DNA from: an uncultured virus (IMG/VR IMGVR_UViG_3300021185_003028)
Taxonomy: Duplodnaviria > Heunggongvirae > Uroviricota > Caudoviricetes
Virus record (IMG/VR): IMGVR_UViG_3300021185_003028
DNA: 20,000 nucleotides
Direction: 5' to 3' (one strand)
Below, one piece after another: positions 1-18,201 of this stretch. Numbering within the stretch: the stretch's first letter is position 1; each line of letters opens with the position of its first letter. The notes below the pieces were generated by a model, which worked only from the letters and a program-made list of their open reading frames with translations, was not told where the DNA came from and did not search any database. The position numbers and the translations under genes are program-made.

Positions 1-2508
1 TTTGTCGATGGTCATATCACGGTCGATAACGATGCCAAAGTCGTCAGGAGACTCACCCCATTCGATTGCTATGCGTCGATTCGACGGCAACGGAGCAGGT
101 GCGGTCTTGGCAAAGAAAATCATAGGCTTGTCACCCAAATCGAACTCAGTACCAATGTTTTCGTTGCTCCACATAGCCGCCTTATGGGCGAATGTGCCTG
201 CCTTCTTGACTCCGAATGGTTGCCCGAAGTCCAATTGAGGTGTCACATCGGGGTCTTTCATTGCCACGATTTGCTCACGAATCAGAACACCGATGGCCGT
301 TGCGTCTCCCCCATCCAATATCGAGTCGAATAGAACCTGTTGAACGGTTTTGACTACATTCGGAGTCGAAGAACGGCGGAGTTCAACGCCTCTGTAACCG
401 TGTTTGCCATTGAAATCACGGTATGCGTACCGCTTCTTGACGCCCCATTGGAAGTATCGCTCGTAGTAGGCGTCAGGTTTGATGTTGAAGAACTCGTTCT
501 TATCGACATTGAGCGTCTCTTTGACGAAGTCGTCGAACGATTTGTTCAGTTCTCGGCACAGAATGTCAGCCATGTCCTTTACATCGGCCTCCGTGAAGGG
601 TCGAATCGTCTTCTCGACCTCGTCGTGGTTGGATATTGCCACCTTGCAGGAGTCAGTGTCCTGATACAGGGTGGTGAAGCGGAGTTCCATACACCCATGA
701 GATGCGGGTATATAGTCTTTTTGTGGATATACACCTGACTCGGTGAAAAACAAAGTGCGTTTGTTGATGTAGTGTTTGTTCCAATCGTTGTGCAGTCGTG
801 CGGTTTCGGTGATGTCAGAGCCAATCTCAGGGTCGGCGAGACGGAACGGTCGGTTGCGAGTCTTCTCAGTTCGACCCGAACCCAAAACGCCGTACCACGA
901 GTTCATGTTCTCCTTCATGACACGCTGTTGCCTATCGAGGAGTAGCAATTTGTCAGGGTCTGCCTCGGTTCTCATCTCGTCTTTCAACGCTTGACGAGCC
1001 GACGCAAGTCCTCTCAGGACACGAGCCATGATTGATTCTTTGTCTCGTCGATAGAATCGTCCACCTCTCGTCTCGGTGACAGGGAATGGAAACCCTTCGG
1101 GATAATCGGATTCGATAACTTTGGTGTCAGGGCCAAAATTGCCTGTGATAATCGCCGACGGGTATTCCATCGAGTTATCCAATTCAAATGCGTTCCGCCA
1201 AACACCCACAGGGGCTTCCATGACGAAGCCTCCTTGCTCGATGCCCCCTTCGGGCATTGAATCTCTAACGACCTGCACAGAGGGCAGTATGACCCCTTCA
1301 CGCATCAACAAATGGCCCATCATGTCTTCAACGAGCATCATGTTGCTGTGACTGTTATGGAGAGTGGAGTTATGATAGGCGGTCTTCATGACATAGAAGG
1401 GGAGCAGGTCTAACTTCTCCATACACCGTGCGGCACAGACATTGTCCCATGCGTTATACACAGCGAGCATCATCGGGTCTTTGACCATCAGTTCAGTGAT
1501 TCGGGTTCGTGGTACTTTGCCATAGCCAAGTGTACTGTGCGCCATCCACGATAGCGAAGCCGCTCCTGTTGTTGCGGCCGCTCCTTGCACCTGTTCAGCG
1601 TATGCGATTTTGGTATCGAATGTGGGCATGCGGCGCATGAAATCGAATGACGGGACTTTGTACCGATGGTATCGAAGAACCTTGCGTACACGGTTCACGA
1701 GATACGGTATGTCGTATCCCTTGATGTTCTGACCTGCGAGTACATCGGGGTCGTATCTCTTGAGAGCATCGACCCACCAATTCATCAGGTCAGTCTCTCT
1801 TTGCATCAGGTCGGGGTTATCGAAGTTAATGACCTTGACTTTGTCACGAGGAACAGGAGGTATCGGTTGGTCGTGTTCGACTATGTCCTCCAACGCTTCT
1901 TGGGAAGACATGAACCGTTGAACGAGTCGCTCAGAAGTCGGTGATGTTGTTGCTATCTCGTGCATGCCTGTCTTCACATCGAACAGAGCGATTGACACGA
2001 CAGGTTCGGGTGCGTTCTCCATGTCGAGAGAATCGGCGGTTTCAATATCGAAGTACAGTAGGTCGGGTGTGAAGTCCGATGCGGGAACTTGAGAATCGTA
2101 GATATTCACAGGTCTGAGGTTATCCATGTCCTTCGACATATCGACTTCAATAACTGCGTACCAACCGTAGAGCCATCTGACCATTGACGACCATCGTGCA
2201 TCGGCGGCGTAGTGTGGATAGTAAAAGTCACGAATCTCTCGATAGTGAAACGGTGATGCAATCTCAATCTCCATCAGGGGCTTGCCATCGACACTCTCCA
2301 TGTCGCTGATTTTACTGCCGACGAAGCCGTCAATTTTACTGCCGAATGGGTGCTCGTTCTTGGGCTTGGCAGTCCAAAACCTCGGCTTGCATCCATGCAC
2401 TCGTAACTTGACTGTGTCACCGTTGCGAGCCTTGCATCTGAGCACGGTACTCCATGACTTCTTATCGCCCTCAGCGGCTACATCAATAATCAACAGAGGC
2501 TCTCGCAT
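1..2508 (-). CDS. polB: Family B DNA polymerase, 3' end outside the window (>836 aa)
   Basis: Manual translation from ATG 2508 (MREPLLIIDV..., GGTGA SD upstream) is open to base 1. ExoI LYFDIET (~2040-2058), ExoII GQNIKGYDIPYL, ExoIII YNAWD, motif A ELDNSMEYPS (1156-1185), motif B KENMNSWYG (~889-915), motif C YQDTDS (649-666), KKRYA. Absent from the ORF track because there is no stop in the window. Confidence 0.97.
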   Translation of the reverse strand, partial: MREPLLIIDVAAEGDKKSWSTVLRCKARNGDTVKLRVHGCKPRFWTAKPKNEHPFGSKIDGFVGSKISDMESVDGKPLMEIEIASPFHYREIRDFYYPHYAADARWSSMVRWLYGWYAVIEVDMSKDMDNLRPVNIYDSQVPASDFTPDLLYFDIETADSLDMENAPEPVVSIALFDVKTGMHEIATTSPTSERLVQRFMSSQEALEDIVEHDQPIPPVPRDKVKVINFDNPDLMQRETDLMNWWVDALKRYDPDVLAGQNIKGYDIPYLVNRVRKVLRYHRYKVPSFDFMRRMPTFDTKIAYAEQVQGAAATTGAASLSWMAHSTLGYGKVPRTRITELMVKDPMMLAVYNAWDNVCAARCMEKLDLLPFYVMKTAYHNSTLHNSHSNMMLVEDMMGHLLMREGVILPSVQVVRDSMPEGGIEQGGFVMEAPVGVWRNAFELDNSMEYPSAIITGNFGPDTKVIESDYPEGFPFPVTETRGGRFYRRDKESIMARVLRGLASARQALKDEMRTEADPDKLLLLDRQQRVMKENMNSWYGVLGSGRTEKTRNRPFRLADPEIGSDITETARLHNDWNKHYINKRTLFFTESGVYPQKDYIPASHGCMELRFTTLYQDTDSCKVAISNHDEVEKTIRPFTEADVKDMADILCRELNKSFDDFVKETLNVDKNEFFNIKPDAYYERYFQWGVKKRYAYRDFNGKHGYRGVELRRSSTPNVVKTVQQVLFDSILDGGDATAIGVLIREQIVAMKDPDVTPQLDFGQPFGVKKAGTFAHKAAMWSNENIGTEFDLGDKPMIFFAKTAPAPLPSNRRIAIEWGESPDDFGIVIDRDMTIDK

Positions 2509-2534
2509 AGATGAATCACCTCGACCCACCTATT

Positions 2535-3587: not shown

Positions 3588-4574
3588 CTATATAAGCGTG
3601 ATGGTTCGGATGAAGCATTTGACTGCGAGAATATCGTCTTGGGCCACGCTTGCGATTTTGAGTGCTTCGCCCAAGCCCATCAGGACGCCTGCTTGCATTT
3701 TGAGAGGCATGTCTTCGTCGGTGGTCACGAGGTCATAGATGGCATCGAGAATCTCAACGCCTGACATGCCCCTTGCACCGAGCGCATCAATCTCCTTATC
3801 GACTTCACGCATCAGCCTCATGTCGTTCTTGGTCAGAGCCTTGAACGCCCTCGATAGCAAACGCTTCGCCCTGTTCGGCTGAACCGTCACCACGAACTCT
3901 TCAACATCGGCGAGTTCGACTTCACCTGCAACACGAGTCAAAGTCCAAAGCAAGTTCAGAGCCTTTCGCATCGAGCCACGAGAAGTCCTCATCAGCAAGT
4001 CCAACGCCTCGTCGGTTAATGCTGTCGATAGGGCAAGGAGAGCGGGTCTCATCTCATCAGGGTGAATCGGAGTAAATCGAGTCGATGCAAATGCACATCG
4101 GTCTTTGATGGGGTCAATCAATTTTTGAGGATAGTTCGCACTGAGAATGAATCGAGTCTGTGGGTATCGCTCCATCATCCTTCGTAGTGCGGCCTGTGCT
4201 TCGGGTGTGAGGTTGTCACACTCGTCAAGGAACACCACATTGAATGGGATTGGTCGAGTCTTGCCATCGACTTCGTATGTGCCGATGACTCCACGAGAAG
4301 CGAACTCCTTGACCTTAGAACGGATGACTGAGATAGAGCGTTCGTCAGAAGCGTTCATCTCAAGCCAATTAGACGACCATGCGTCACCGAAGGCTGTCTT
4401 CATCAATGCGATAGCAGTCGAGGTCTTGCCTACGCCCTGCATACCTGCAAACAGTAGGTGAGGTATGTCCTCGCCCCTGTGGATGCCTTCGACCATTGCT
4501 TTGAGCCGAGAGATGATGTGAGTCTGTCCTACAACATCGTCAAGCGTCTCAGGTCTGTGCTGTTCAATCCACAT
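3588..4574 (-). CDS. rfcS: Replication factor C small subunit (clamp loader AAA+), 328 aa
   Basis: [17 protein letters not shown], Walker [18 protein letters not shown], Walker [20 protein letters not shown] (SRC motif), GSMRKALN. Start at ATG 4574 with GGTGA SD. Confidence 0.95.
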
Positions 4575-4599
4575 GATGCTATCACCTTGCCACACCTAC

Positions 4600-8905: not shown

Positions 8906-9214
8906 TCAAGCCCCCCGTGTCATGTTGAGCACCTTATCGACTCTAAGAGCGGTGCGTGTGCGTGGTTGGTTGTCACGGCGAAGCATGACGGTCTTAACGA
9001 CGCCGTTGCGGACGATTGCCACGACATTCTCGCCGTTTGACTTGGAGTCACACGAGGAGTCTCGGTGAGCGTTCAGACGGACAGCATAGACAGCCATTGA
9101 AACATCTCGGCCAACGACTTCCACAGCCGCTTGAATGTTCATCAATGCCTCGCTTCGCTCGTCCGCTGTGAGGCGGGTGTTCAGGCGGTCGAGGGCGTGT
9201 GTGTTTGTTCGCAT
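8906..9214 (-). CDS. Hypothetical protein, possible RelE/BECR-fold RNase-like (102 aa)
   Basis: N-terminal THALDRL..R and C-terminal VVAIVRNGVVKTV pattern; own TATA promoter. Confidence 0.6.
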   Translation of the reverse strand: MRTNTHALDRLNTRLTADERSEALMNIQAAVEVVGRDVSMAVYAVRLNAHRDSSCDSKSNGENVVAIVRNGVVKTVMLRRDNQPRTRTALRVDKVLNMTRGA

Positions 9215-9265
9215 GGTTAGAGATGGGAGGCCACCCCTATATATACATGCCTCTCAAAGGTTCTC

Positions 9266-9290
9266 GTCCCCGCTCGCTCTGAGCGGGGAC
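9266..9290. terminator. Perfect 10-bp GC hairpin between cassettes
   Basis: gtccccgctc-gctct-gagcggggac, just downstream of the 9316-9621 stop. Confidence 0.55.
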
Positions 9291-9315
9291 ATAACCGAAG
9301 GACTGATGCTCGTTT

Positions 9316-9621
9316 TCAGCAGTCGCACTCGTCTTCTTCTGACTGTGCTCGAATCTCGGCGACTCGCTTGCGAGTAGCCTCAAACATGTATTGGTCTTCG
9401 TGGCCTGTGCCATTGCATGCGGCCATGATTGCCATAGCAAATGTCATGGCGTCGTCTTTGGTCATTTTGATGCTCGTCCCGTGTCCGCCTGCGCTCATGA
9501 AGACGCCGATGTGTTGGCTTCTCTTCACCACTACGGAGATGTCGGTCGGTGTTCCTTGAGAGTCGTTCCATCCATTGAAGGAGCGGCCTGCGTGCGTGTC
9601 TGTCATGGTCTGTGTTCCCAT
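9316..9621 (-). CDS. Hypothetical early protein (101 aa)
   Basis: Start moved to ATG 9621 behind a TATATATAGGGG promoter; the longer track ORF runs through element E. Confidence 0.75.
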   Translation of the reverse strand: MGTQTMTDTHAGRSFNGWNDSQGTPTDISVVVKRSQHIGVFMSAGGHGTSIKMTKDDAMTFAMAIMAACNGTGHEDQYMFEATRKRVAEIRAQSEEDECDC

Positions 9622-9677
9622 ATTTACAGATGGGAGGTCGCCCCTATATATAGATGCCGATTTTAGTATAGAATAAA

Positions 9678-9720
9678 AAAGACTATATACTGCCAGCCTT
9701 ATGTTCAAGTGGATGATGAT
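9678..9720 (+). repeat. Element E copy
   Basis: aaagactatatactgccagccttatgttcaagtggatgatgat. Confidence 0.95.
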
Positions 9721-9804
9721 GCGGCGGACATAGCCGCCCGCCAAAAACGCACGACTGCGCCCCTGCTGTCAGGGACTCAGCGCAGGCGGCGGCGGTGGTT
9801 CGCC

Positions 9805-10326
9805 TCAGTATTCTTCACAGTTCCCGTCATCAACGATGAAGCCGTTCTGATTCATCCAAGCATCCGAGACAATGCCGACAATGCACGAAGCAGGAATGTC
9901 GCCATGAATCTCGGTGTCGCCGCCGTATCCGTGCGGGTCGTCTTGTATGGTGACGCCAGTGGCCTTGAGTGCGTCCATATCAACGGCGAAGGTGATGCCA
10001 TCAGGAGACCACTTCAAATCGACTCCGTCGAACTTTACATAGGTGTTCTTGGTGATGCCTTGCGAGCGTCTCAATTGTTGCTTATACATGCCGAAGCGGT
10101 TGCCGCTTGCGACTTCGCTCTTAACTTGGAAATCACGAGGGATGCCGAACTTGAACCCGTTGGCAATCAATTGCCGTCGCTTGGCTCGGAAGAGTGGAGA
10201 GTCAAAGTTCGGGAGGTCGAATCCCCGTGAATCCATAGAGAGGATACCGTCTTTCATGATGGTCTCGGCGTGCCTTGCATCGGTTCGATGGAAGGCGAGG
10301 TTTCGGGTGGGGGTTGCGTCTTGCAT
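9805..10326 (-). CDS. Putative ADP-ribosyltransferase-fold protein (Tpt1/KptA-like H-clade), 173 aa
   Basis: AFHRT....AETIMKDGI resembles LYHGT...IL.EGL; FAVDMDAL strand; terminal EIHGDIPASCI. Confidence 0.6.
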   Translation of the reverse strand: MQDATPTRNLAFHRTDARHAETIMKDGILSMDSRGFDLPNFDSPLFRAKRRQLIANGFKFGIPRDFQVKSEVASGNRFGMYKQQLRRSQGITKNTYVKFDGVDLKWSPDGITFAVDMDALKATGVTIQDDPHGYGGDTEIHGDIPASCIVGIVSDAWMNQNGFIVDDGNCEEY

Positions 10327-10371
10327 GGTTAGTCGTAGCCGCCGCCCCTATATAACATGACCGCTCAAAGT

Positions 10372-10539
10372 TCAGAGCCATGAGAAATCTTCGGGGTGAT
10401 AGATTCGACCGTGACCCGACGGGAATGCCTTGCGGCGTTCTTCGACTTGCCACGCCGTCCAACGGTTATTGACGACGATAGGAAGCCACAGCGGCAAGGT
10501 TGCCAACAACAGGAGATAAACGAACCATCGAGCAAACAT
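10372..10539 (-). CDS. Small membrane protein (55 aa)
   Basis: MFARWFVYLLLLATLPLWLPIVVNNRW...; ATG directly abuts the upstream TGA; not in the ORF track. Confidence 0.6.
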   Translation of the reverse strand: MFARWFVYLLLLATLPLWLPIVVNNRWTAWQVEERRKAFPSGHGRIYHPEDFSWL

Positions 10540-10719
10540 TCAGGCCACCGCCGTCCATGTGTCGAGTAGATAATTGAAGACCGCAGTCCAGTCACGGTTC
10601 AGGTGAGCCACGCCACCTTCGACAATGTCAGTCAGGTCGTCGCCGTTCTCTGCGTGGTTTGCGAGAGACTTGGCTCGGCCGCTGTATAGGGTTCGGAGGA
10701 GGTCGGTGTTGTTGCTCAT
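10540..10719 (-). CDS. Hypothetical early protein (59 aa)
   Basis: MSNNTDLLRTLYSGRAKSLANHAENGDDL...; CCTATATAGG promoter ~20-30 nt upstream. Confidence 0.7.
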   Translation of the reverse strand: MSNNTDLLRTLYSGRAKSLANHAENGDDLTDIVEGGVAHLNRDWTAVFNYLLDTWTAVA

Positions 10720-10756
10720 ACCCCGACGAGTAGATGCTCCTATATAGGCATTCCGC

Positions 10757-11038
10757 CTAAATCTTTCGTGCTTTGACGGTTGCGCCGTCGATTGAATAGG
10801 CCCACTTTTTCAGAGTGATGGAGGTCAATTGTCCTCGCTCCATGTGCAGGCGACCGCCCTCCTTATCGCCGATGATAGCCGAAGCCTCCCGACGGATTGA
10901 CGCAACGGCGACAGCCTCAGAGAGACGGAACAAAGCACAGTCCCGACGAAGTCTGACGACCTCAGCAATGCGGAAACGGTGCAGGCGTTTGGTCGCCTTG
11001 CGGCTCTCTCGGCGTTCGGCACGACTCAGGCGGCTCAT
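10757..11038 (-). CDS. Arg-rich basic hypothetical protein (93 aa)
   Basis: GGAGG SD upstream; MSRLSRAERRESRKATKRLHRFR. Confidence 0.65.
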   Translation of the reverse strand: MSRLSRAERRESRKATKRLHRFRIAEVVRLRRDCALFRLSEAVAVASIRREASAIIGDKEGGRLHMERGQLTSITLKKWAYSIDGATVKARKI

Positions 11039-11087
11039 ATTTCAGAGCCGCCCTCCCATGTTCTTGAGCGTGTCGGCTCAAGTCCAC

Positions 11088-11270
11088 TCAAATGCCTGCG
11101 GCTATGACTGCTTGGAGTTCTTTCTTTGCTTCGTCCCATGCTTTTTTGAGTTCGTCGCAGGTATCAGGGCAAGACCATTCGTAGGCTTCGCCTGCAATTC
11201 TTTCGGCTACTTCTGCTTCGTAGCGGGCTTCTGACCAGTCTTCATCGGGGGTGTCGGAGTGTTCGTCCAT
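11088..11270 (-). CDS. Acidic small protein (60 aa)
   Basis: ATG 11270 behind AAACCTTTATT..TAGGACTAAAC; 18 D/E versus 6 K/R. Confidence 0.75.
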   Translation of the reverse strand: MDEHSDTPDEDWSEARYEAEVAERIAGEAYEWSCPDTCDELKKAWDEAKKELQAVIAAGI

Positions 11271-11308
11271 GTTTAGTCCTAAAGGTCGGGGGGTAATAAA
11301 GGTTTTGC

Positions 11309-11554
11309 TCAAGCGAGTCTCTCCCATAGATTGAAGCAGGTGGTCAAGGTCACTTCATCAATGAAGGCGTCCTCTTCTTCTGATGGGGTTTCATCATATC
11401 GGGTGTTGAAGTCGAAGACCTCACGCTTGACAATGTCTCGCACATTGCTGTATTGGCGGTCGGGATTTCCCCATGAGTCCAAGAAGACTCTTGAGATTCG
11501 TCCTGAGATTTGTGGGCTTATTGGGCGGGGGGTTAGGCGGCTGTTTGTTCGCAT
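11309..11554 (-). CDS. Hypothetical early protein (81 aa)
   Basis: ATG 11554 behind a TTATATAGGGG promoter. Confidence 0.75.
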   Translation of the reverse strand: MRTNSRLTPRPISPQISGRISRVFLDSWGNPDRQYSNVRDIVKREVFDFNTRYDETPSEEEDAFIDEVTLTTCFNLWERLA

Positions 11555-11623
11555 GTATTTGATGGTAGGGTGTCCCCCTATATAAGCATGCCGCTCAAAG
11601 TAAATACGAAAGTATAGATTAGG

Positions 11624-11667
11624 AAAGACTATATACTGACAGCCCTGTGGTTCAAGTGGACGACGAC
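11624..11667 (+). repeat. Element E copy
   Basis: aaagactatatactgacagccctgtggttcaagtggacgacgac. Confidence 0.95.
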
Positions 11668-11723
11668 TAAACGCACCACTCCGAGCCTGTGGGCCGCCGC
11701 CCTCGTTCTGATGTTTGGGCGGC

Positions 11724-12005
11724 TCACTGGAAAATCCATTCAAAGCCTGCCTGCTGAATGTGAAAGCGGGTCAAGCCGTCGGGCATTTCTGTCTTGAAGA
11801 ATCGGCACGGCTCGCCCTCCATCTCGGCGCAGGTCGTGAAGTCGTCGAAGGTCTCGCCCTCGTCGAGCATATCGGAGACGATGACAGCGGCCAAAAAGTC
11901 GGCCTCTGAAATCTCGACACGGTGGGTCATCATGGTGTGCCAATCGGCTTCACCTTCGTCAGTGCGTCGGACTCGGTCGCATGTTCCTAAGAAGTGGCGG
12001 CTCAT
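11724..12005 (-). CDS. Acidic hypothetical early protein (93 aa)
   Basis: ATG 12005 behind GAAAGGTTTATA; ends QAGFEWIFQ. Confidence 0.75.
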   Translation of the reverse strand: MSRHFLGTCDRVRRTDEGEADWHTMMTHRVEISEADFLAAVIVSDMLDEGETFDDFTTCAEMEGEPCRFFKTEMPDGLTRFHIQQAGFEWIFQ

Positions 12006-12069
12006 ATCCCTCCCTGTGCATGGGGGGATATAAACCTTTCGGCCTATCAAACCTTTGAGATGAACACCA

Positions 12070-12099
12070 CCCTCGACGGCTTACAACGCCCGTCGAGGG
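12070..12099. terminator. Perfect 10-bp hairpin between cassettes
   Basis: ccctcgacgg...ccgtcgaggg downstream of the 12124-12372 stop. Confidence 0.55.
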
Positions 12100-12123
12100 C
12101 GACTCACTCGCCTGCTTCTTTAC

Positions 12124-12372
12124 TCATGCAAACATCGACGCCCACGCATTGACCATCTCACGGACATCAAACATGATGCACTCGGTTCGGCGGGTCATTG
12201 CGTGAAATAGGTCGGCTTGGTCTTCAAGGTCGAGCATCTGAGAAATTATTTGCTGTGCCTCGAATGAGTGAACATCAGCGACGGAAAGACGACCCATGAG
12301 GGAGCGTGCTTTGGTCGTGAGTTCAGATTGGCTAAAAATCGTGCGGGTGGGGGTTGGGCTTTCTTCGTCCAT
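12124..12372 (-). CDS. Hypothetical helical early protein (82 aa)
   Basis: ATG 12372; promoter nearly identical to that of 7783-8037 (TTTATATCCCCC..CACTACGGCAA.ACATGGACG). Confidence 0.75.
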   Translation of the reverse strand: MDEESPTPTRTIFSQSELTTKARSLMGRLSVADVHSFEAQQIISQMLDLEDQADLFHAMTRRTECIMFDVREMVNAWASMFA

Positions 12373-12536
12373 GTTTTGCCGTAGTGGTGGGGGGATATAA
12401 ACATATCGGTGTCCAAAACCTTTATATCCCGCCACCATGTAGGACACATGAGAGGGGAGGGGCGAGCGGCCTCCTGAATCGAGTTCACTTGGGGAGGGTG
12501 CGGGTGCTACTAAAGAATCAACGCACACGAAACGAA

Positions 12537-12561
12537 GTATCGGCTAAATGGTATCGGCTAA
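12537..12561 (+). repeat. GTATCGGCTAA direct repeat, 2 copies
   Basis: 12537-12547 and 12551-12561. Confidence 0.9.
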
Positions 12562-12613
12562 ATGTCACCCGCCCCCTGATGAGGCGGGTTCAGAATCAGC
12601 GGCTCGGCTCGGC

Positions 12614-12862
12614 TCAAGAAAGGTTGGCGAGTGCTCGGTTCAAGGTCTCGTGACGCCATACGACAAAACGAGCAACCAATAGGCGGTTTTGGTTGTATTC
12701 ACGAACCATCTCGCCTTCGGGGAATCCGAGCCAACCGTTTTTGGTATCATCAGAAAGAATCGCTCGTGCTTCGGTCAGGTCGATGTTGTTGAATCTCCCT
12801 GTTTCAATCAGTCGTTGTGCTTCGTTTGCGACCCATTGGGTCATGAATGTTGCTTCGTCCAT
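12614..12862 (-). CDS. Hypothetical early protein (82 aa)
   Basis: ATG 12862 behind AACCTTTATA..CTACGGCAATAC. Confidence 0.75.
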   Translation of the reverse strand: MDEATFMTQWVANEAQRLIETGRFNNIDLTEARAILSDDTKNGWLGFPEGEMVREYNQNRLLVARFVVWRHETLNRALANLS

Positions 12863-12905
12863 GTATTGCCGTAGGTGTAGTAGGATATAAAGGTTTCTAT
12901 AACCT

Positions 12906-12946
12906 AAATAAAAAAAGTGGACGAGCCGACCCCCATCGGCTCGCCC
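12906..12946 (-). terminator. Hairpin plus oligo-T terminator of the large ncRNA
   Basis: Minus strand GGGCGAGCCGA-TGGGGG-TCGGCTCGTCC-ACTTTTTTTATTT. Confidence 0.75.
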
Positions 12947-13528
12947 TGAGAAAGGGAGAACACGGCCCGTATTGGTCGTGGGTAGCGTGCTCAAGGTTCG
13001 AGCGGGGTTGATTTGGTTTCGGGAGTCGTTGGTTCGACGCCTGATTACTACGACCTTCCCCGTGCCTCCCGCACGGGTTTAGGTAGTCGAGTCACAGTGG
13101 TTCACGCATGCGGTGATTACTTGTGCTGTCATGTTTCATCTATTCAAATCAGAACCCCCGCTCTTGGAGGTTCGTCAGAATAAGAGAGGGCGTGGGTGTT
13201 TGGTGCGTTGCGCTGTGTTAGCCGCCTATTCCCGACCGAAGTCCATTTGATGCCACGAGGGCGGGTGCGTTCATACAGGGAGCGAAGGGGCAGGGCTTAT
13301 CACCGAGTCTTCTGACCTTAGCCACTTAGCACGATACTCAGTGCCTCCGAAGGATTTAGGTCGCCTCACCTTAACCCCCGCTAACTCCTTTGTTGCCGTT
13401 CCCCGTGTGCGGTTGGATGACCGACGGGTTAGGCTCAAGGTGTTGCGAGGAGGTGATTCTCTCTCATCTGTTAGCCCCACATGTCCCCATGTGGAGCGAC
13501 TGTCAAAGGCGGGTTTGACTCCGCCCTC
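12910..13528 (-). ncRNA. Putative large structured non-coding RNA (~620 nt), family unrecognised
   Basis: Early-type promoter (TTATATA 13550-13556 plus TAGGAC) with no ATG at the start position, no credible ORF, dense stems including long-range pairing and a UUCG tetraloop, and a terminator at the end. Confidence 0.7.
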
Positions 13529-13575
13529 AAATGTCCTACGGGTCTCGCCTATATAAGGCTTGTCCCGAAAGGTTC

Positions 13576-13687
13576 AGAGCGGCGGGTTCGTCGTCAGCCT
13601 ATTCACGAACCCACGCCCCTCGTAAAAGGTGCGCCTCCCGACTCGCCCCCAATTCAGGGGACAGGCTGTGGGTGGTAGTTCCGCTCT
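13576..13687 (-). ncRNA. Putative ~112-nt structured RNA with closing stem and pseudoknot
   Basis: Promoter TTTAAT..TAGGACTAATC followed by AGAGCGG in place of ATG. The 5' AGAGCGG pairs with the 3' CCGCTCT, and there is a 10-bp internal stem whose loop can pair with a 5' segment. Confidence 0.65.
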
Positions 13688-13741
13688 GATTAGTCCTATG
13701 GGCCACACCCTATTAAAGATTCCTATATGTTTCTATTAACG

Positions 13742-13783
13742 AAAGGTTTATAGGGTGACAGCCCTGTGTTCATATTGGACGAC
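13742..13783 (+). repeat. Degenerate element E copy
   Basis: aaaggtttatagggtgacagccctgtgttcatattggacgac. Confidence 0.75.
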
Positions 13784-13900
13784 TCCTCCTAAAGGGGTCA
13801 GGCCAAAGAAAAACGCCGCACGGCGTAACATCAGAGAAGGGCGGGCGACCACTATCAGCCCGAATGTGGCCGCCCTAAGAGTCGAAGGCTGTGAGCCGTC

Positions 13901-14275
13901 TCACATGCACATGTAGGTTTCAGAAGGCATGCGGTATGCACGGTATCGGTTGCCTACGAGAGCACGCAGAGCCTGATAAGCGTCTGTGTGAATGTAGAAG
14001 CGGTCGAGGTGCTCGCAGATGTGAAAGTTAGCACAGCAGGCAATTGAGATGATGGTTGCTTCAATTGCTCTCTTGCCCTCGTCAGTCCACTTTGCAGGCA
14101 GTAGCGAAGACCATGAGTTCTCGCAAGCGGCGGCGATAGCCATGCGGTGCGTAGCGTGGTTGATGAGTTCAAAGTTCTCCATGAACACCTCAGTAGTGCG
14201 AGGATTCATTTTGGCCTCAAGCACGATTTCAAGGTATTGTTCTTTTGTCAGCGGGTGTGTCGGTCTGTCCGTCAT
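13901..14275 (-). CDS. Hypothetical early protein (124 aa)
   Basis: Promoter AAACCTTTAAG..TAGGACTAAAC-ATG. Confidence 0.8.
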   Translation of the reverse strand: MTDRPTHPLTKEQYLEIVLEAKMNPRTTEVFMENFELINHATHRMAIAAACENSWSSLLPAKWTDEGKRAIEATIISIACCANFHICEHLDRFYIHTDAYQALRALVGNRYRAYRMPSETYMCM

Positions 14276-14351
14276 GTTTAGTCCTATACGCTTTCCCTAC
14301 TTAAAGGTTTTGTATTATCGTTCTGACATGGGTCGGCTATTTTAGCCGCCC

Positions 14352-14389
14352 TCCACTTGAACGGTATGGCTGTCAGTATATAGTCTTTT
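14352..14389 (-). repeat. Element E copy, inverted
   Basis: Reverse complement aaaagactatatactgacagccataccgttcaagtgga. Confidence 0.9.
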
Positions 14390-14390
14390 C

Positions 14391-14580
14391 TATAATATAC
14401 TATTATAATAATAATATAATAATTAAAAGAATGAGAAGCACTATGACACACACACATGATAGAGAGAGAGAAGTGTGTGTGTGCTCAGGGGTATGCCGTC
14501 CGCATCATTGTTTATCGAAACCGATAGGCTACGCCCCTGAAATGGGGTGTTTAATTCAGGGGGACATTCAGGGTTTTTTC
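14391..14580. other. AT-rich tract plus hairpins; candidate replication origin
   Basis: 14391-14432 is almost pure A/T in a roughly 55% GC genome; (AC)5/(GT)5 stem 14446-14482; cccctgaa/ttcagggg inverted repeat 14534-14562. Confidence 0.45.
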
Positions 14581-14648
14581 ATATGAAGAATTGTCAAAAC
14601 CTATCGGCCTCTCGTACTTTCATGCGTCAAAAGTCTGAATCGTCCCCA

Positions 14649-14855
14649 TCATTGTTTGTAGCAATTCACGAAGTCACCTATAAACCAACGAGCCAATTGA
14701 GACCACGATTTGAAAGCAGGGAGGTACAGATTCCGATACCATTGGGCGTAACAGAACTGAGCCTCGTGCTCATCGTTCAGGCGTTGGTTCACCTGCTCTA
14801 TGGCTCTCTCGCTCGCCTCCATGACAACATCAAACGGGGTGAGTTCGTCGGTCAT
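14649..14855 (-). CDS. Hypothetical protein (68 aa)
   Basis: TGATG translational coupling to the upstream gene; GGTGA SD. Confidence 0.7.
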   Translation of the reverse strand: MTDELTPFDVVMEASERAIEQVNQRLNDEHEAQFCYAQWYRNLYLPAFKSWSQLARWFIGDFVNCYKQ

Positions 14856-15121
14856 CAGAAGTCACCTGCGAGCCAAGCCGCACGCTCCGCACGGTTGGCA
14901 CGGATGGACGCTCGCCACATTGCACAGCGGTCGTCAGCGTTGATGTATGCGACAGCGTCGGCGTGTGGTGTGCCTTGACAGACCATAGCCACGATTGCAC
15001 GAGCACGACCCTTGATGTGGGTCACAATGCAAGCGGTTGAGATGCCGCCTGAAAAACCGTCTGTGTATGCTCGACTTGCGGCGAGGCGTGCTCCGAGTGT
15101 TGGTCGTGTGTCTCCGTCCAT
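14855..15121 (-). CDS. Hypothetical early protein (88 aa)
   Basis: Promoter TTAATA..TTACGAGTAAC-ATG. Confidence 0.75.
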   Translation of the reverse strand: MDGDTRPTLGARLAASRAYTDGFSGGISTACIVTHIKGRARAIVAMVCQGTPHADAVAYINADDRCAMWRASIRANRAERAAWLAGDF

Positions 15122-15271
15122 GTTACTCGTAAGGGATGCCCCTTATTAAGACTATCGGTCTCCAAAACCTTTATATCCCCCTGACCCCTACGATTAACAT
15201 AGCCGACCTCAGCGGAGGACGGGAGAAGAGAAGGAATAAGCGGAGGCTTATTTCAAAATCCTATCAGAACG

Positions 15272-15296
15272 AAAAGACTATATACCCCCATCTCAT
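15272..15296 (+). repeat. Element E variant, 24/25 identical to a minus-strand sequence inside polB (697-721)
   Basis: aaaagactatatacccccatctcat versus aaaagactatatacccgcatctcat. Confidence 0.85.
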
Positions 15297-15337
15297 AGCA
15301 ACAACAAAGGCCGACCCACCCGACAGGCCGACAGTCA

Positions 15338-15378
15338 ATAAAAAAAGACCCACCCGCTCAGAGCGGGCAGGTCTTTCA
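15338..15378 (-). terminator. Hairpin plus oligo-T terminator
   Basis: Plus strand ataaaaaaagacccacccgctcagagcgggcaggtcttt. Confidence 0.65.
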
Positions 15379-15511
15379 CTGGGGGGGAGACGGCCTCACG
15401 CCGTCCGAGATTAGCGGGCCATTGCGGCCCTTGTTGCCGCCCATAGGGCGGCTGTATCATTTCCGTTTATCTTCTCACCTCCTTGCGTTGTTTTGTTCGT
15501 TCTCGTGTTGC

Positions 15512-15715
15512 TCAGACGGTCTTGACGACGACCTTTTGGTGGATGCTGTGCTTGCTTGGGGAGGAGACTCGCCAAGAGCCACAGTCCACGCACGAGAGGT
15601 CGAGGTTCTCGACGCCGAAGAGGTCGGTCTTGACCTCAAGGGTGAATGATGGGCAACCACATTCACAGGTGACGGTCTTGGTCGGGCTTCGGGGGGTTGT
15701 TGTCTTGTCTGACAT
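15512..15715 (-). CDS. Zinc-ribbon microprotein (67 aa)
   Basis: TCECGCPSF...LSCVDCG; own promoter TTATATAGGGGG..CTACGGTTAAAC-ATG. Confidence 0.8.
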   Translation of the reverse strand: MSDKTTTPRSPTKTVTCECGCPSFTLEVKTDLFGVENLDLSCVDCGSWRVSSPSKHSIHQKVVVKTV

Positions 15716-15766
15716 GTTTAACCGTAGGAGTCCCCCCTATATAAGCCTGCCTCTGAATGGTTTTGC

Positions 15767-16099
15767 TCAGTTATGAGCGGCACGGTGGCCCTCTTCGCTC
15801 CACTGCTCGTCTGTGAAGTCGTTCTCGGTGTCCTTGCTTGCACGGATGCACATAGCCATTGAGTACGACCCGAAGGGCATGAAATACTCGTTGCCGTCAC
15901 AGTCTGTATTGATGCGGCGGGCTACTGGTGCGTCGTCGCTGTTGCCGTGCGGGTGGTGAATCCATACCGTCTTTGATGTGCGGCGGACAATCTCGACGCT
16001 CACGATTGAATGATAATTCGAGGCGAAGCGGCCGTAGTATTCACGGCCAACGATGAAGGTTGAGGGGCGGGCTTCGGGGGTCTGAGTGTGTGCGCTCAT
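15767..16099 (-). CDS. Hypothetical early protein (110 aa), F.VG..Y family
   Basis: FIVGREYY...VEIVRRTSKTV...RRI...DGNEY...GSYS; promoter TTTAAT at the usual spacing to ATG 16099. Confidence 0.8.
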   Translation of the reverse strand: MSAHTQTPEARPSTFIVGREYYGRFASNYHSIVSVEIVRRTSKTVWIHHPHGNSDDAPVARRINTDCDGNEYFMPFGSYSMAMCIRASKDTENDFTDEQWSEEGHRAAHN

Positions 16100-16249
16100 A
16101 ACCATGCGTGGGGGTGCGACCTATTAAACCTATCGGTCACGAAACCTTTATATGCCTCCACCCTTTAGGGTTAGATAAGCAGGGATTGAAAGCCCGCTGA
16201 CTAAGGCACGGGGGGAGATGCCGTCTCATGTACGGCCTGCCCGCTCGTA

Positions 16250-16292
16250 GTCGTCCACTGGAACATGGGAGACGACACCCTATAAACCTTTC
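16250..16292 (-). repeat. Element E copy, inverted and partly degenerate
   Basis: Reverse complement gaaaggtttatagggtgtcgtctcccatgttccagtggacgac. Confidence 0.8.
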
Positions 16293-16334
16293 GGCGTGGC
16301 GTTCTCTTGAGAGGTGGGAGAATGTAGGATAGGC

Positions 16335-16352
16335 AAGACTATATACCGACAG
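16335..16352 (+). repeat. Element E 5' half
   Basis: aagactatataccgacag(c). Confidence 0.75.
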
Positions 16353-16397
16353 CACAAGGGAGCAACAAAGCCGCCCGCACCCGCAGGCCGACGGTCG

Positions 16398-16438
16398 AGA
16401 AAAAAGAACCCCGCCCGTCCTGAGTCGGGCGAGGTTCG
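16398..16438 (-). terminator. Hairpin plus oligo-T terminator
   Basis: Plus strand aaaaaagaaccccgcccg-tcctgagt-cgggcgaggttc. Confidence 0.65.
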
Positions 16439-16540
16439 GCGACCGTGCGAGAGACCCCGCACGGGGTCGGATTTACGGAGCGGGGGAGGGTTGCCCCTCA
16501 AGCCCGCCCCGACCGTGTCAGAGGGCGTCTAAGAGCCGTC

Positions 16541-17053
16541 TCAAGCGTCCTGTGGGTGAACCTTCACGACTGCGCTGTATGGCTTGACCATGTCGGCTTG
16601 AAGGGTTGCTTTCCATGCCTTGAAGTCAGCGTCGGTCTTCTTGGAGGAGACGATGTGGTGTTCAGCGTGGAACGCTTCAATGGCTTCGTCAGACTCGCCG
16701 TTTTGGCGCATGATGGAGGCGTCAGCGAATGCACGCATGAACTTGTTCATGGCAGGGTTGTTTGAGCCGTGAACAGCAAGCAAGAACGCTTCAAGGTTGA
16801 AGCCGAGTGTGCTCTTGACGGTGGTGGACGCCTTGCCGACGGTGTAGTGTCCGACCATGTCGGTTTCAACGCCTGTGAGGTTGTCGGTGACTGTGTAGTC
16901 GTAGTCGTTGCTTGAGTTCTCGTTTGCTCTGACTGCTTCCATGTCAATTTTCATGTGCTTGCCTACGATTTTGTCGAGGGGTGCAATGACGCTGACCTCA
17001 ATAGCAAGGGTGGTCGGGGTTCGGGCTTCCGTTGTCTTCATCTCTTGGGACAT
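16541..17053 (-). CDS. Hypothetical protein (170 aa), most upstream gene of the early array
   Basis: Long ORF with protein-like composition; TGATATA promoter at the usual spacing. Confidence 0.85.
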   Translation of the reverse strand: MSQEMKTTEARTPTTLAIEVSVIAPLDKIVGKHMKIDMEAVRANENSSNDYDYTVTDNLTGVETDMVGHYTVGKASTTVKSTLGFNLEAFLLAVHGSNNPAMNKFMRAFADASIMRQNGESDEAIEAFHAEHHIVSSKKTDADFKAWKATLQADMVKPYSAVVKVHPQDA

Positions 17054-17220
17054 AACACTCCATTAGTGGACTACTATATCAATGTGTCGTCTATAACCTA
17101 CGAAGGGTATATATACTAAAGCAATGCGGCTCGTTTTCTCGGACATTTCAGAGGCTCGCCGAGGCCGATTTTCACGCATGGGGTCGGCGACCCCTCGCAC
17201 GCCTGACACGCCGCCGCCGC

Positions 17221-17258
17221 ATCCACTTGAACGGTGACGCTGTCAGCCTATAAAGGTT
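17221..17258 (-). repeat. Element E copy, inverted
   Basis: Reverse complement aacctttataggctgacagcgtcaccgttcaagtggat. Confidence 0.85.
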
Positions 17259-17360
17259 GGGGTGCGACTACTTCGTTTGACCTAAAGAGAATGTCAGACC
17301 GATACCTTTATAACCCTTTCGGTGTCGGCCTGCAATAGCGGACGAGAAAGTATCGGAGGG

Positions 17361-17398
17361 AAACCTTTATAGGCTGTCAGCCCTATGTTCAACATGGG
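17361..17398 (+). repeat. Degenerate element E copy
   Basis: aaacctttataggctgtcagccctatgttcaacatggg. Confidence 0.75.
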
Positions 17399-17449
17399 CG
17401 GACGGGCCGACGGGCCGACCCGACAAAAAATCAATCTGAACATCAACAG

Positions 17450-17536
17450 GTATCGGCTAAAGTATCGGCTAAGTCGCAAGTATCGGCTAAATATCAAGAG
17501 CCATCATCAATGGTATCGGCTAAATGTATCGGCTAA
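17450..17536 (+). repeat. GTATCGGCTAA direct repeat, 5 copies
   Basis: Starts at 17450, 17462, 17480, 17513 and 17526. Confidence 0.95.
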
Positions 17537-17607
17537 CTCGACATTCCCATGTCTTCTGTTCAAATCCGATTCCCAAATAAGTCAAATCTCAACGCATCGT
17601 TTCTGAG

Positions 17608-18201
17608 TCACTCATCGTCATTATCGTCTTCGATAACTTCGGCCTCAATCTCAATCGTCCTGAGTTCTTCCTGAACCACTTGCCTGAATTGGTCAATCGG
17701 GTCGTAGCCAATGTTCACCACGACTTGCGGCTTGGCATCCTGAGCACCTGACATTTTGTCTAATTGGTCTTGCTGTTTGATGAGTCCACCCACCATGAAC
17801 GAGACATTGTTGAGGTTGGAGACATTGTCAGCCAATGCGTGTGCCTGATGGATAATGCCCTCCGTCAAATTGAGCATTCTTTTGCGTCTTGCGTAGGAAT
17901 CGAGCCTCAGCCAATCGGTGTCACCCATTTCAGCCTTAGCAATTGTCAGGTGACGAAGGTCTTCGGCTTGTATCCTTGCCAAGCGCATAAGGCGAGTCAC
18001 CGTCTCTTGCGTGAGGCGACTATCCAAATCGGCTTCTCCGAGTCGTCGTCTAACCTCACTTTCTTTGTAGCCCTGTACGAGCAACATGGCAGTCCATCGT
18101 ATCAGAGAATCATCGACGCCGTCGGTCTGTCCTCCGCCCCAAGCGTCAATCGCAGTCACTTCGGATTCAGGGCCTTCGGCCCAATCATCATCGTCGTCCA
18201 T
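17608..18201 (-). CDS. Putative terminase small subunit-like protein (197 aa)
   Basis: HTH-like N-domain (LLVQGYKESEVRRRL..TQETVTRLM), long helices, C-terminal strand PQVVVNIG and acidic tail. Architecture only; start at ATG 18201. Confidence 0.5.
   Translation of the reverse strand: MDDDDDWAEGPESEVTAIDAWGGGQTDGVDDSLIRWTAMLLVQGYKESEVRRRLGEADLDSRLTQETVTRLMRLARIQAEDLRHLTIAKAEMGDTDWLRLDSYARRKRMLNLTEGIIHQAHALADNVSNLNNVSFMVGGLIKQQDQLDKMSGAQDAKPQVVVNIGYDPIDQFRQVVQEELRTIEIEAEVIEDDNDDE

Follow-up and report, generated by a model that had tools for sequence, protein, structure and literature searches.

What is encoded by a stretch of viral DNA that begins behind a TATA box, ends in a terminator-like hairpin and holds no credible open reading frame (ORF)? 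The question arises at nt 12910–13556 of a 20,000-nt stretch of DNA (the window, to which all coordinates refer unless another locus is named) from an uncultured tailed virus of the class Caudoviricetes, IMG/VR record IMGVR_UViG_3300021185_003028. An initial annotation, made from the sequence alone, read the region as a minus-strand gene with its own promoter for a large structured non-coding RNA (ncRNA) of an archaeal virus. This core reading is upheld by the current analysis, as the region is found in RNA libraries, is non-coding, forms helices that covary between lineages and is matched by no Rfam family. That there is a real gene for a structured ncRNA is considered very likely; the fuller description, of an independent gene at nt 13528–12996 (minus strand) specifying a stable, two-domain structured ncRNA of about 520–530 nt in a magrovirus-type virus, is considered likely.

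Contigs from four metatranscriptome runs of sea water, belonging to four studies, were placed on nt 9000–18000 of the window. In every run contigs lie over nt 12996–13671 and none lie over the genes on either side, that is, the region is present as RNA distinct from its neighbours in 4/4 runs. Run X7 has four overlapping contigs spanning nt 12996–13517 (among them 12996–13349, 13320–13430 and 13401–13517; k-mer depth 116–232). Run X9 has contigs at 12999–13177 and 13176–13517, the first of which begins three unaligned letters earlier, equivalent to 12996 (a related locus, L009, described below, differs from the window at 12998). A contig of run X6 covers 12996–13664 and has sequencing-adapter letters joined directly at 12996, and run X12 has contigs at 13157–13416 and 13516–13671. 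The other pieces found in the 9 kb are 9000–9114 (X7), 32 nt at 14392–14423 (X6) and 16521–17019 (X6, X7), and where RNA contigs are lacking, silence is not thereby proven. Carry-over of DNA does not explain the pattern, because the flanks were placed in the same comparison and are devoid of contigs.

The 3' end at nt 12996 is common to all three runs that reach that side (X6, X7 and X9), and is given the greater weight because of the adapter junction and the concordance of three studies. Since the contigs end at 12996 and start at 13517, or at the predicted start, G13528, the stable RNA (nt 12996–13528, minus strand) is about 522–533 nt in length. A discrete minus-strand transcript of ~620 nt, running to about nt 12910, had been expected; a discrete RNA with contig-free flanks does occur in four studies, while its end lies at 12996 in 3/3 runs, which makes it ~90–100 nt shorter, and the contigs are strandless. 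This end is 4 nt past the closing helix of the fold described below and ~85 nt short of the T-run of the terminator.

The predicted control elements were found as originally noted. A TATA box, TTATATA (nt 13550–13556, minus strand), stands ~21–22 nt from the start position, a spacing also seen in the leaderless protein cassettes of the window, and between the two is a TAGGAC box (13533–13538, minus strand), which in the form ataggac also precedes CAGAGCGG and the ATG at 14275. Further upstream is a probable promoter or junction box, TCTGAACCTTTCGGG (13564–13578, minus strand), of a form common to the neighbouring cassettes; similar boxes occur 40–50 nt ahead of the starts at 10326, 9214 and 8580, and the copy at the RNA gene overlaps the 3' arm of a small RNA unit lying upstream. 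In the protein cassettes of the same strand (starts 14275, 10326, 9214 and 8580) the ATG is exactly 22 nt past a TATA box of the form TT(T/A)A(T/A)(T/A)AGG. In two RNA units this position holds no ATG, and instead carries GAGGGCGG (13528) or CAGAGCGG (13688); the former occupies nt 13521–13528, giving the predicted RNA start, G13528. As the ATG follows the TATA box at 22 nt, this suggests that the virus uses leaderless messages for most of its small genes; here the same type of promoter heads a unit without a start codon.

At the other end is the annotated terminator-like element (nt 12910–12946, minus strand), comprising an 11-bp hairpin with a UGGGGG loop (12919–12946) and a run of seven T residues (12910–12916). 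In L001, a locus of the second lineage described below, the inner stem and loop are identical, while the outer stem has changed with its pairing kept. Judged by its sequence, the unit thus appears to possess both a promoter and a terminator of its own, as expected of an independent ncRNA gene. Nucleotides 12947–12995 (minus strand), which separate the RNA 3' end from the terminator, are free of RNA contigs and form the most variable stretch in comparison with L009 (the 142 nt at 12854–12995 have 12 substitutions). This spacer is missing in L001, where ~11 nt lie between the equivalent RNA end and the terminator hairpin. The four-nucleotide 3' tail of the RNA reads GAAC in the window, GCAC in L009 and GACC in L001.

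Homologues were found in two lineages only, in searches of phage records and of viral, metagenome and genome contigs. Type A, the lineage of the window, includes L008 (identical), L011 (99%) and L009 (96%). Type B consists of L001, whose contig is the same as L004–6, L013 and L032, and of L007, which differs from it by two bases. In type B a stretch of patchy similarity lies between the same upstream gene, the protein of which is 43% identical, and a downstream gene that is conserved (77%). The 55,503-nt contig L032 is filed within a bacterial (Legionellales) metagenome-assembled genome, most likely as a result of a binning error.

Covariance models were built from type A alone and then tested on type B. 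Model R1 covers the 3' domain (nt 12996–13175) and matches L001 3885–4039 from end to end (22 bits, E 0.0017), while model R2 covers hairpin H2 and the branched arm P3 (13359–13501) and matches L001 and L007 with 53–54 bits (E ~1e-10); both sets of matches are at the syntenic place. For the 52 pairs of the 3' domain, 95.7% of cells are paired and 11 pairs have changed on both sides, compared with a mean of 3.7 in shuffles (0/500 reach 11) and 1–3 in slid controls. The 41 pairs of H2 and P3 have 95.1% of cells paired and 8 pairs changed on both sides (slid controls 0–1), and their cell count and covariation score are reached by none of 500 shuffles. Combined, compensatory changes on both sides are present in 19 of the 93 modelled pairs, as against 0–3 in slid controls, which have 33–49% of cells paired. 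RNAalifold, applied to the R1 and R2 alignments, recovers the main helices, with structure conservation indices of 0.75 and 0.90 and column-shuffle z-scores of -8.3 and -9.6. The covariation asked for by the initial annotation is therefore present, in that the helices keep their pairing in the divergent L001/L007 lineage, and the G-U pairs which it had taken to favour the minus strand are seen in both alignments, several pairs being G-U on that reading.

Plain MAFFT alignment misaligned the 3' ends, and alignment of the central domain to L001 is unreliable. The register of the best helices is not the choice of the aligner, because invariant flanks pin the closing helices and the GGGAG hairpin. 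The closing helix 13156–63/13000–07 lies between an invariant CCAAG and the RNA end, and has changed from A-U to C-G and from G-C to A-U. In the second closing helix (13145–51/13009–15) the L001 sequence is wholly different and complementarity is kept. In the hairpin at 13059–13077, one of the stems drawn by the initial annotation, the GGGAG loop is invariant and three of the seven pairs are swapped in L001.

The proposed architecture, from 5' to 3', is a terminal hairpin, H2, a 5' domain, an invariant linker and a 3' domain, all on the minus strand. The predicted 5' hairpin has 8 bp (nt 13505–13528; pairing probability 0.72), and in L001 the corresponding place is taken by a hairpin of 7 bp with another sequence, so a local hairpin occurs here in both lineages. 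It is followed by H2 (13474–13497), a hairpin of 10 pairs with a GGGA loop, behind which stands GGCUAA. H2 is the most conserved block of the RNA, with a single transition between the lineages in 27 nt; nine of its pairs are invariant and one has gone from A-U to G-U, and the annotated stem at 13477–94 lies within it and so is retained. The 5' domain is predicted to be closed by a long-range helix between 13459–13470 (GAGAGAG core) and 13176–13188 (CUCUCUU core), with a pairing probability of 0.93–0.99. Its purine/pyrimidine core is kept in L001, clean covariation is not seen, and in L011 and L009 the GAGAGAG strand has a 2-nt insertion and one A-to-C change. Within the domain, arm P3 (13366–13456) is branched, ends in a CAUCCA loop and accounts for 31 pairs, 8 of them changed on both sides, the R2 match to L001 and L007 being at E ~1e-10. 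The remainder is a variable central domain of ~175 nt (13189–13365) with a GAC-UUCG-GUC hairpin at 13234–13243, which stands as first described and has a compensatory G-C to A-U change in L009 (13243/13234), and a hairpin at 13329–13344, in which L009 has a G-C to C-G swap (13344/13329). The linker ACGAACCUCCAA (13164–13175) is identical in both lineages, and the 3' domain proper (12996–13163) holds the two closing helices and the GGGAG-loop hairpin. Four elements are invariant and probably unpaired: GGCUAA after H2, the CAUCCA loop, the CCUCC of the linker and the GGGAGG of the 3'-domain loop. The linker CCUCC is complementary to the invariant GGAGG of that loop; any tertiary pairing between them is conjectural, since both partners are invariant.

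Of the seven stems of the initial annotation, four hold, one of them in part, and three do not. A stem at 13152–13173 can be kept in part, as it competes with the covarying long-range helix 13156–63/13000–07. The pairing of 13521–28 with 13257–64, held to close a large domain, does exist but is no more than chance would give: three perfect 8-mer complements are seen, compared with a mean of 2.96 in 300 shuffles. It is without a clear counterpart in L001, whereas the 5' terminal hairpin is retained by both lineages. The stem 13301–08/13336–43 is broken by two uncompensated changes in L009 (13340, 13337), and the swap at 13344/13329 supports a different local hairpin. The stem at 12961–12980 is outside the stable RNA and is absent from L001.

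The assertion that no credible ORF is present was borne out. The largest ORFs of nt 12854–13900 have 69–71 amino acids, none exceeding 71: one of 69 amino acids at 13271–13480 (minus strand, GTG start) and one of 71 at 13341–13556 (plus strand). TAA, TAG and TGA all occur in each of the three minus frames, and no minus frame is opened by any single stop reassignment. Within the RNA, L011 (99%) and L009 (96%) carry indels of +2, +1 and +1, of which two, one of 2 nt after 13467 and one of 1 nt after 13350 (in both loci), fall inside the two ORFs. The 22 type A substitutions are spread 7/5/10 over the three phases, showing no codon phase, while in the adjacent coding sequence (CDS) 2/2 substitutions are at third positions. 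The ORF at 13271–13480, whose conservation by codon-type substitutions would have told against an RNA gene, is thus disrupted in L011 and L009, and L001 has no ORF homologous to those of the window. Because of the frame-breaking indels, the lack of a codon phase or a shared ORF in L001, and stops in all minus frames, the stretch is non-coding; there is no conserved reading frame, as expected of an ncRNA gene.

Certain points weigh against this reading. The metatranscriptome runs were chosen for containing this stretch, the contigs show neither strand nor level nor true ends, and shared contig stops are only a weak hint. At the 5' side the contigs end at 13517, a position 11 nt short of the predicted start and inside the loop of the 5' hairpin as modelled; processing could account for this end, as could loss of the extreme 5' end during library making, and it is given less weight than the end at 12996. 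Single-sequence folding z-scores are modest and equal on the two strands (-2.76 and -2.61), so that the case for structure rests on comparison, and the aligned sequences were fitted to the model structure and so lean towards it. For H2 and P3, 111 of 500 shuffles reach 8 both-side changes. The two lineages are effectively 3–4 distinct sequences, each covarying pair reflecting one divergence, and the central ~175 nt have no settled fold. In comparison with L009 the RNA has changed faster (4.1%) than the adjacent CDS (0.8%). Finally, the function proposed further below is a best guess.

The virus itself appears to be a magrovirus-like tailed virus of archaea, a label (and a host) inferred from its gene content and distribution. 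The window encodes a family-B DNA polymerase (nt 1–2529, minus strand), an RFC-type clamp loader (3588–4595), SprT-like proteins and a tail-fibre protein with collagen repeats. Among annotated clamp loaders, the closest come from tailed viruses of haloarchaea (35% identity), and all 24 public runs listed with the stretch are marine or seawater metagenomes. The naming follows from the polymerase, the clamp loader and its haloarchaeal-virus match, the tail fibre and the marine runs, the combination of family-B polymerase and RFC clamp loader, a structural gene of tailed viruses and marine origin being that looked for in magroviruses. In surface sea water, magroviruses are reported to be one of the most abundant groups of viruses (PMC5434244). 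A term search of the main text of a set of magrovirus papers gave no mention of ncRNA.

Among the other explanations, the one that survives best, while still improbable, is that the RNA is a distant, expanded member of a known family, such as manA, GOLLD/ROOL, or a viral form of the archaeal RNase P or signal recognition particle (SRP) RNA. Its size class and carriage by a virus do resemble those of GOLLD and ROOL, which are large ornate RNAs, often borne by phages or prophages (10.1101/2024.12.08.627333). Like them, the window RNA exceeds 500 nt, has several domains, belongs to a tailed virus of prokaryotes, is a separate RNA with no adjacent gene obviously under its control, and has complementary loop and linker motifs fit for RNA-RNA contacts. 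It differs in having an archaeal TATA promoter, a host in the domain Archaea and only two lineages, and in matching neither the GOLLD nor the ROOL model of Rfam. Indeed Rfam 15 gave no match at gathering score across the whole window, and at E<=10 gave only noise on 1.5 kb (EBER2), nothing on the RNA alone, and noise (miRNA and Hrs10) on the L001 homologue. ARAGORN found neither transfer RNA (tRNA) nor transfer-messenger RNA (tmRNA), and, with the Rfam models, this agrees with the initial view that no signature of tRNA, RNase P, SRP or tmRNA is present; the archaeal forms of the RNase P and SRP RNAs are likewise unmatched.

The manA RNA is comparable for its marine viral setting, being found in marine metagenomes and in T4-like cyanophages, and its published examples lie in the 5' untranslated regions (UTRs) of genes (PMC2864571). 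The window RNA by contrast stands alone: a terminator and a second promoter intervene before the downstream gene, and the RNA contigs stop at 12996. At E<=10 the manA model (RF01745, gathering score 55.2 bits) matches neither the window nor L001, and at E<=1 it matches none of five related records, the control genomes being silent too. Tan1, which is abundant, 229 nt long and assigned to marine group II archaea (Hou et al. 2016, PMC5069720), is likewise an orphan structured RNA of marine metatranscriptomes, and the contigs to which it maps are ascribed to the presumed host group of the window virus. Its length is different, and so is its sequence, which in Table S5 of that paper is rich in GGGAAAC-like repeats and, when compared by reading, has no motif in common with the window RNA. 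That the window harbours a real structured RNA is well supported; this RNA is new to Rfam and to the literature searched, is known from two lineages only, and is less singular than first thought. The suggestion of a possibly new class stands as regards its place outside all Rfam 15 families, and is qualified by its resting on two lineages.

Very improbable is the view that the RNA is not its own gene and is a cis-acting long UTR of a neighbouring mRNA, either the 5' leader of the gene at 12853 or the 3' trailer of the gene ending at 13901. The X6 contig, which continues upstream across the small RNA unit to 13664, does indicate some read-through from upstream. Against this, a hairpin with a run of five T residues (~13809–13827) stands behind the upstream gene, the unit has a TATA box of its own at the standard spacing, the downstream ATG is preceded by the terminator and a separate promoter, the neighbours are without RNA contigs, three runs end at 12996, and a different gene follows the RNA in L001.

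Harder still to credit is conservation at the level of DNA, for instance of a site for cassette joining or recombination, an origin of replication or a signal for packaging, with the transcript as a by-product. The mosaic nature of the cassette array would suit this, since the similarity of L009 to the window rises from 78% to 96% at ~13579 and L009 carries an extra unit. However, the compensatory changes include G-U pairs valid only in a minus-strand RNA, the conserved blocks are inside the unit and not just at its borders, and RNA libraries contain the region, which ends abruptly in them at 12996. Finally, coding of one or more small proteins, or use of an unusual genetic code, has a negligible chance, for although ORFs of 69 and 71 amino acids exist and plus frame 0 has just two stops, both ORFs are interrupted by insertions in L011 and L009, L001 has no homologous ORF, the substitutions lack a codon phase and no single stop reassignment opens a minus frame.

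The searches for further relatives gave little. A blastn search of 50,697 phage records had no match, the flanking small proteins had no relatives in viral contigs, and both the conserved downstream protein as query and three RNA motifs searched in viral contigs led to the L001 contig alone. An 18-mer found six loci in metagenome contigs, four of them real (L007, L008, L009 and L011), the other two, L010 and L012, being dropped as chance matches in AT-rich coding sequence. The linker motif found six loci in genome contigs, one of them the L001 contig and five due to chance. A clamp-loader profile gave 20 loci, 17 of them new; neither these 17 nor 5 whole records yielded a credible match to models R1, R2 or R3. 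Weak R2 matches in L014 (E 0.07) and L017 (E 1.8) are coding-like and were excluded from the pair count.

Directly upstream of the large RNA is a small RNA unit of ~114 nt (nt 13575–13688, minus strand), which has the promoter TTTAATA (13711–13717) and begins with CAGAGCGG. It is predicted to fold into three arms, with a 9-bp helix joining its two ends, and has no Rfam or tRNA match. It lies under RNA contigs (13516–13671 in X12 and 12996–13664 in X6), and may be co-transcribed with the large RNA. L009 carries a second small RNA unit (L009 440–640), and in two more distantly related loci (L002 2447–2915 and L016 1905–2650) the equivalent place is taken by ORF-free units of 88 to ~450 nt, with the same promoter, the same first bases (CAGAGCG), unrelated bodies, complementary ends and no Rfam match. 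A unit of L016 with an GAAAGUCC box, RNase P-like in look, was not borne out by Rfam. Because relatives carry other ORF-free units there, the large RNA can be regarded as one occupant of a swappable region of RNA and small-gene cassettes. This array, though not the RNA, is like the PeSL-type promoter-terminator cassettes of the hyperplastic regions of T4-type phages, in being made of self-contained units that can be exchanged and have junction boxes in common. The genes of PeSL units are for small proteins, and we know of no large structured RNA described in them.

The gene preceding these units (nt 13901–14275, minus strand) encodes a protein of 124 amino acids, is directly upstream of the RNA in both lineages, and has 10 homologue clusters elsewhere, at 54–90% identity and on contigs of up to 78 kb. 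The protein is confidently modelled as an all-helical bundle (pLDDT 83.6), resembles no PDB structure at E<=0.001 and belongs to neither a Pfam nor a PHROG family; it was considered as a partner of the RNA, and the structure and family searches give nothing on RNA binding. The 65 nt past the stop of this gene (13836–13900, minus strand; L001 3289–3355) are far better conserved than the protein (43% identity), and contain a 10-bp hairpin, GGGCGGCCAC / GUGGUCGCCC, which may be a cassette-junction hairpin. A repeated box, CTGTCA(G/C)CCTATAAA(GG/CC)TTT, with GGAGGAGTCGTCCAAT before it, was observed at 13740–13790 of the window (minus strand) and at L001 3373–3392, 3459–3480 and 4225–4245. It sits upstream of promoters and is promoter-like when read on the opposite strand; a divergent promoter is one possible reading, a regulator site another. 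As for other small genes of the minus strand (for example those with starts at 14275, 10326, 9214, 8580, 5200 and 3566), the ATG is mostly 22 nt past their own TATA box, and in many of them a TCTGAAC(C)TTT box also stands ~45 nt upstream. One gene at least, which is internal to an operon and starts at 2807, has a Shine-Dalgarno (SD)-like box, GGTGGAGG, instead. Apart from the RNA units, RNA contigs at 16521–17019 (X7 16521–17019; X6 16525–16719) cover most of an ORF of 170 amino acids (16541–17053, minus strand), which falls in no Pfam or PHROG family and seems to be an expressed gene.

With regard to the making of the large RNA, transcription would run to the hairpin and T-run of the terminator, and the 3' end would then be produced by cleavage or by trimming back to the closing helix, a maturation suggested by the location of the RNA end 4 nt past that helix and ~85 nt before the T-run. 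Other routes considered and rejected were excision at a bulge-helix-bulge, circularisation and self-cleavage by a ribozyme past 12996. The RNA contigs contain no joints, no complementarity between the end regions was seen by reading, no Rfam ribozyme matches, and L001 has only ~11 nt from the RNA end to the terminator.

The invariant CCUCC linker would pair with the invariant GGGAGG loop within one molecule or between molecules, or else with a conserved outside partner; such pairing could dock the two domains, join copies of the RNA, or bind that partner. If the gene is real, the role most favoured, with something short of an even chance, is that of a trans-acting scaffold or decoy, on account of its place in an accessory early cassette, its replacement by other RNAs in relatives and its presence in RNA libraries. 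The RNA would then act in trans during infection, from within a swappable accessory 'early' region. A self-assembling RNA particle and a ribozyme come next, each thought unlikely, and other roles share the remaining probability.

A bolder proposal, a new class of large trans-acting takeover RNAs that work by SD/anti-SD mimicry or as an RNA-only particle like ROOL and GOLLD, is held to be distinctly unlikely. Were mimicry to be the case, the exposed, invariant GGGAGG loop would imitate a Shine-Dalgarno sequence and the CCUCC linker the 3' end of 16S rRNA, and ribosomal subunits or SD-led host messages would be titrated while the leaderless messages of the virus were still read. In the alternative, GGGAGG and CCUCC would join copies of the RNA into an RNA-only particle.

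Large, elaborately folded RNAs are rare, and those that are understood act as ribozymes, scaffolds or cages; to our knowledge none has been described in print for viruses of archaea, literature searches having given none. The window RNA, as an independent structured ncRNA, is short enough for in vitro transcription, by which its folding, multimers and partners would be approachable without culture. That it ends short of the terminator points to an RNA-processing step of archaeal or viral origin, and an RNA of this kind made by magroviruses would be a new piece of how these viruses handle their uncultured hosts.

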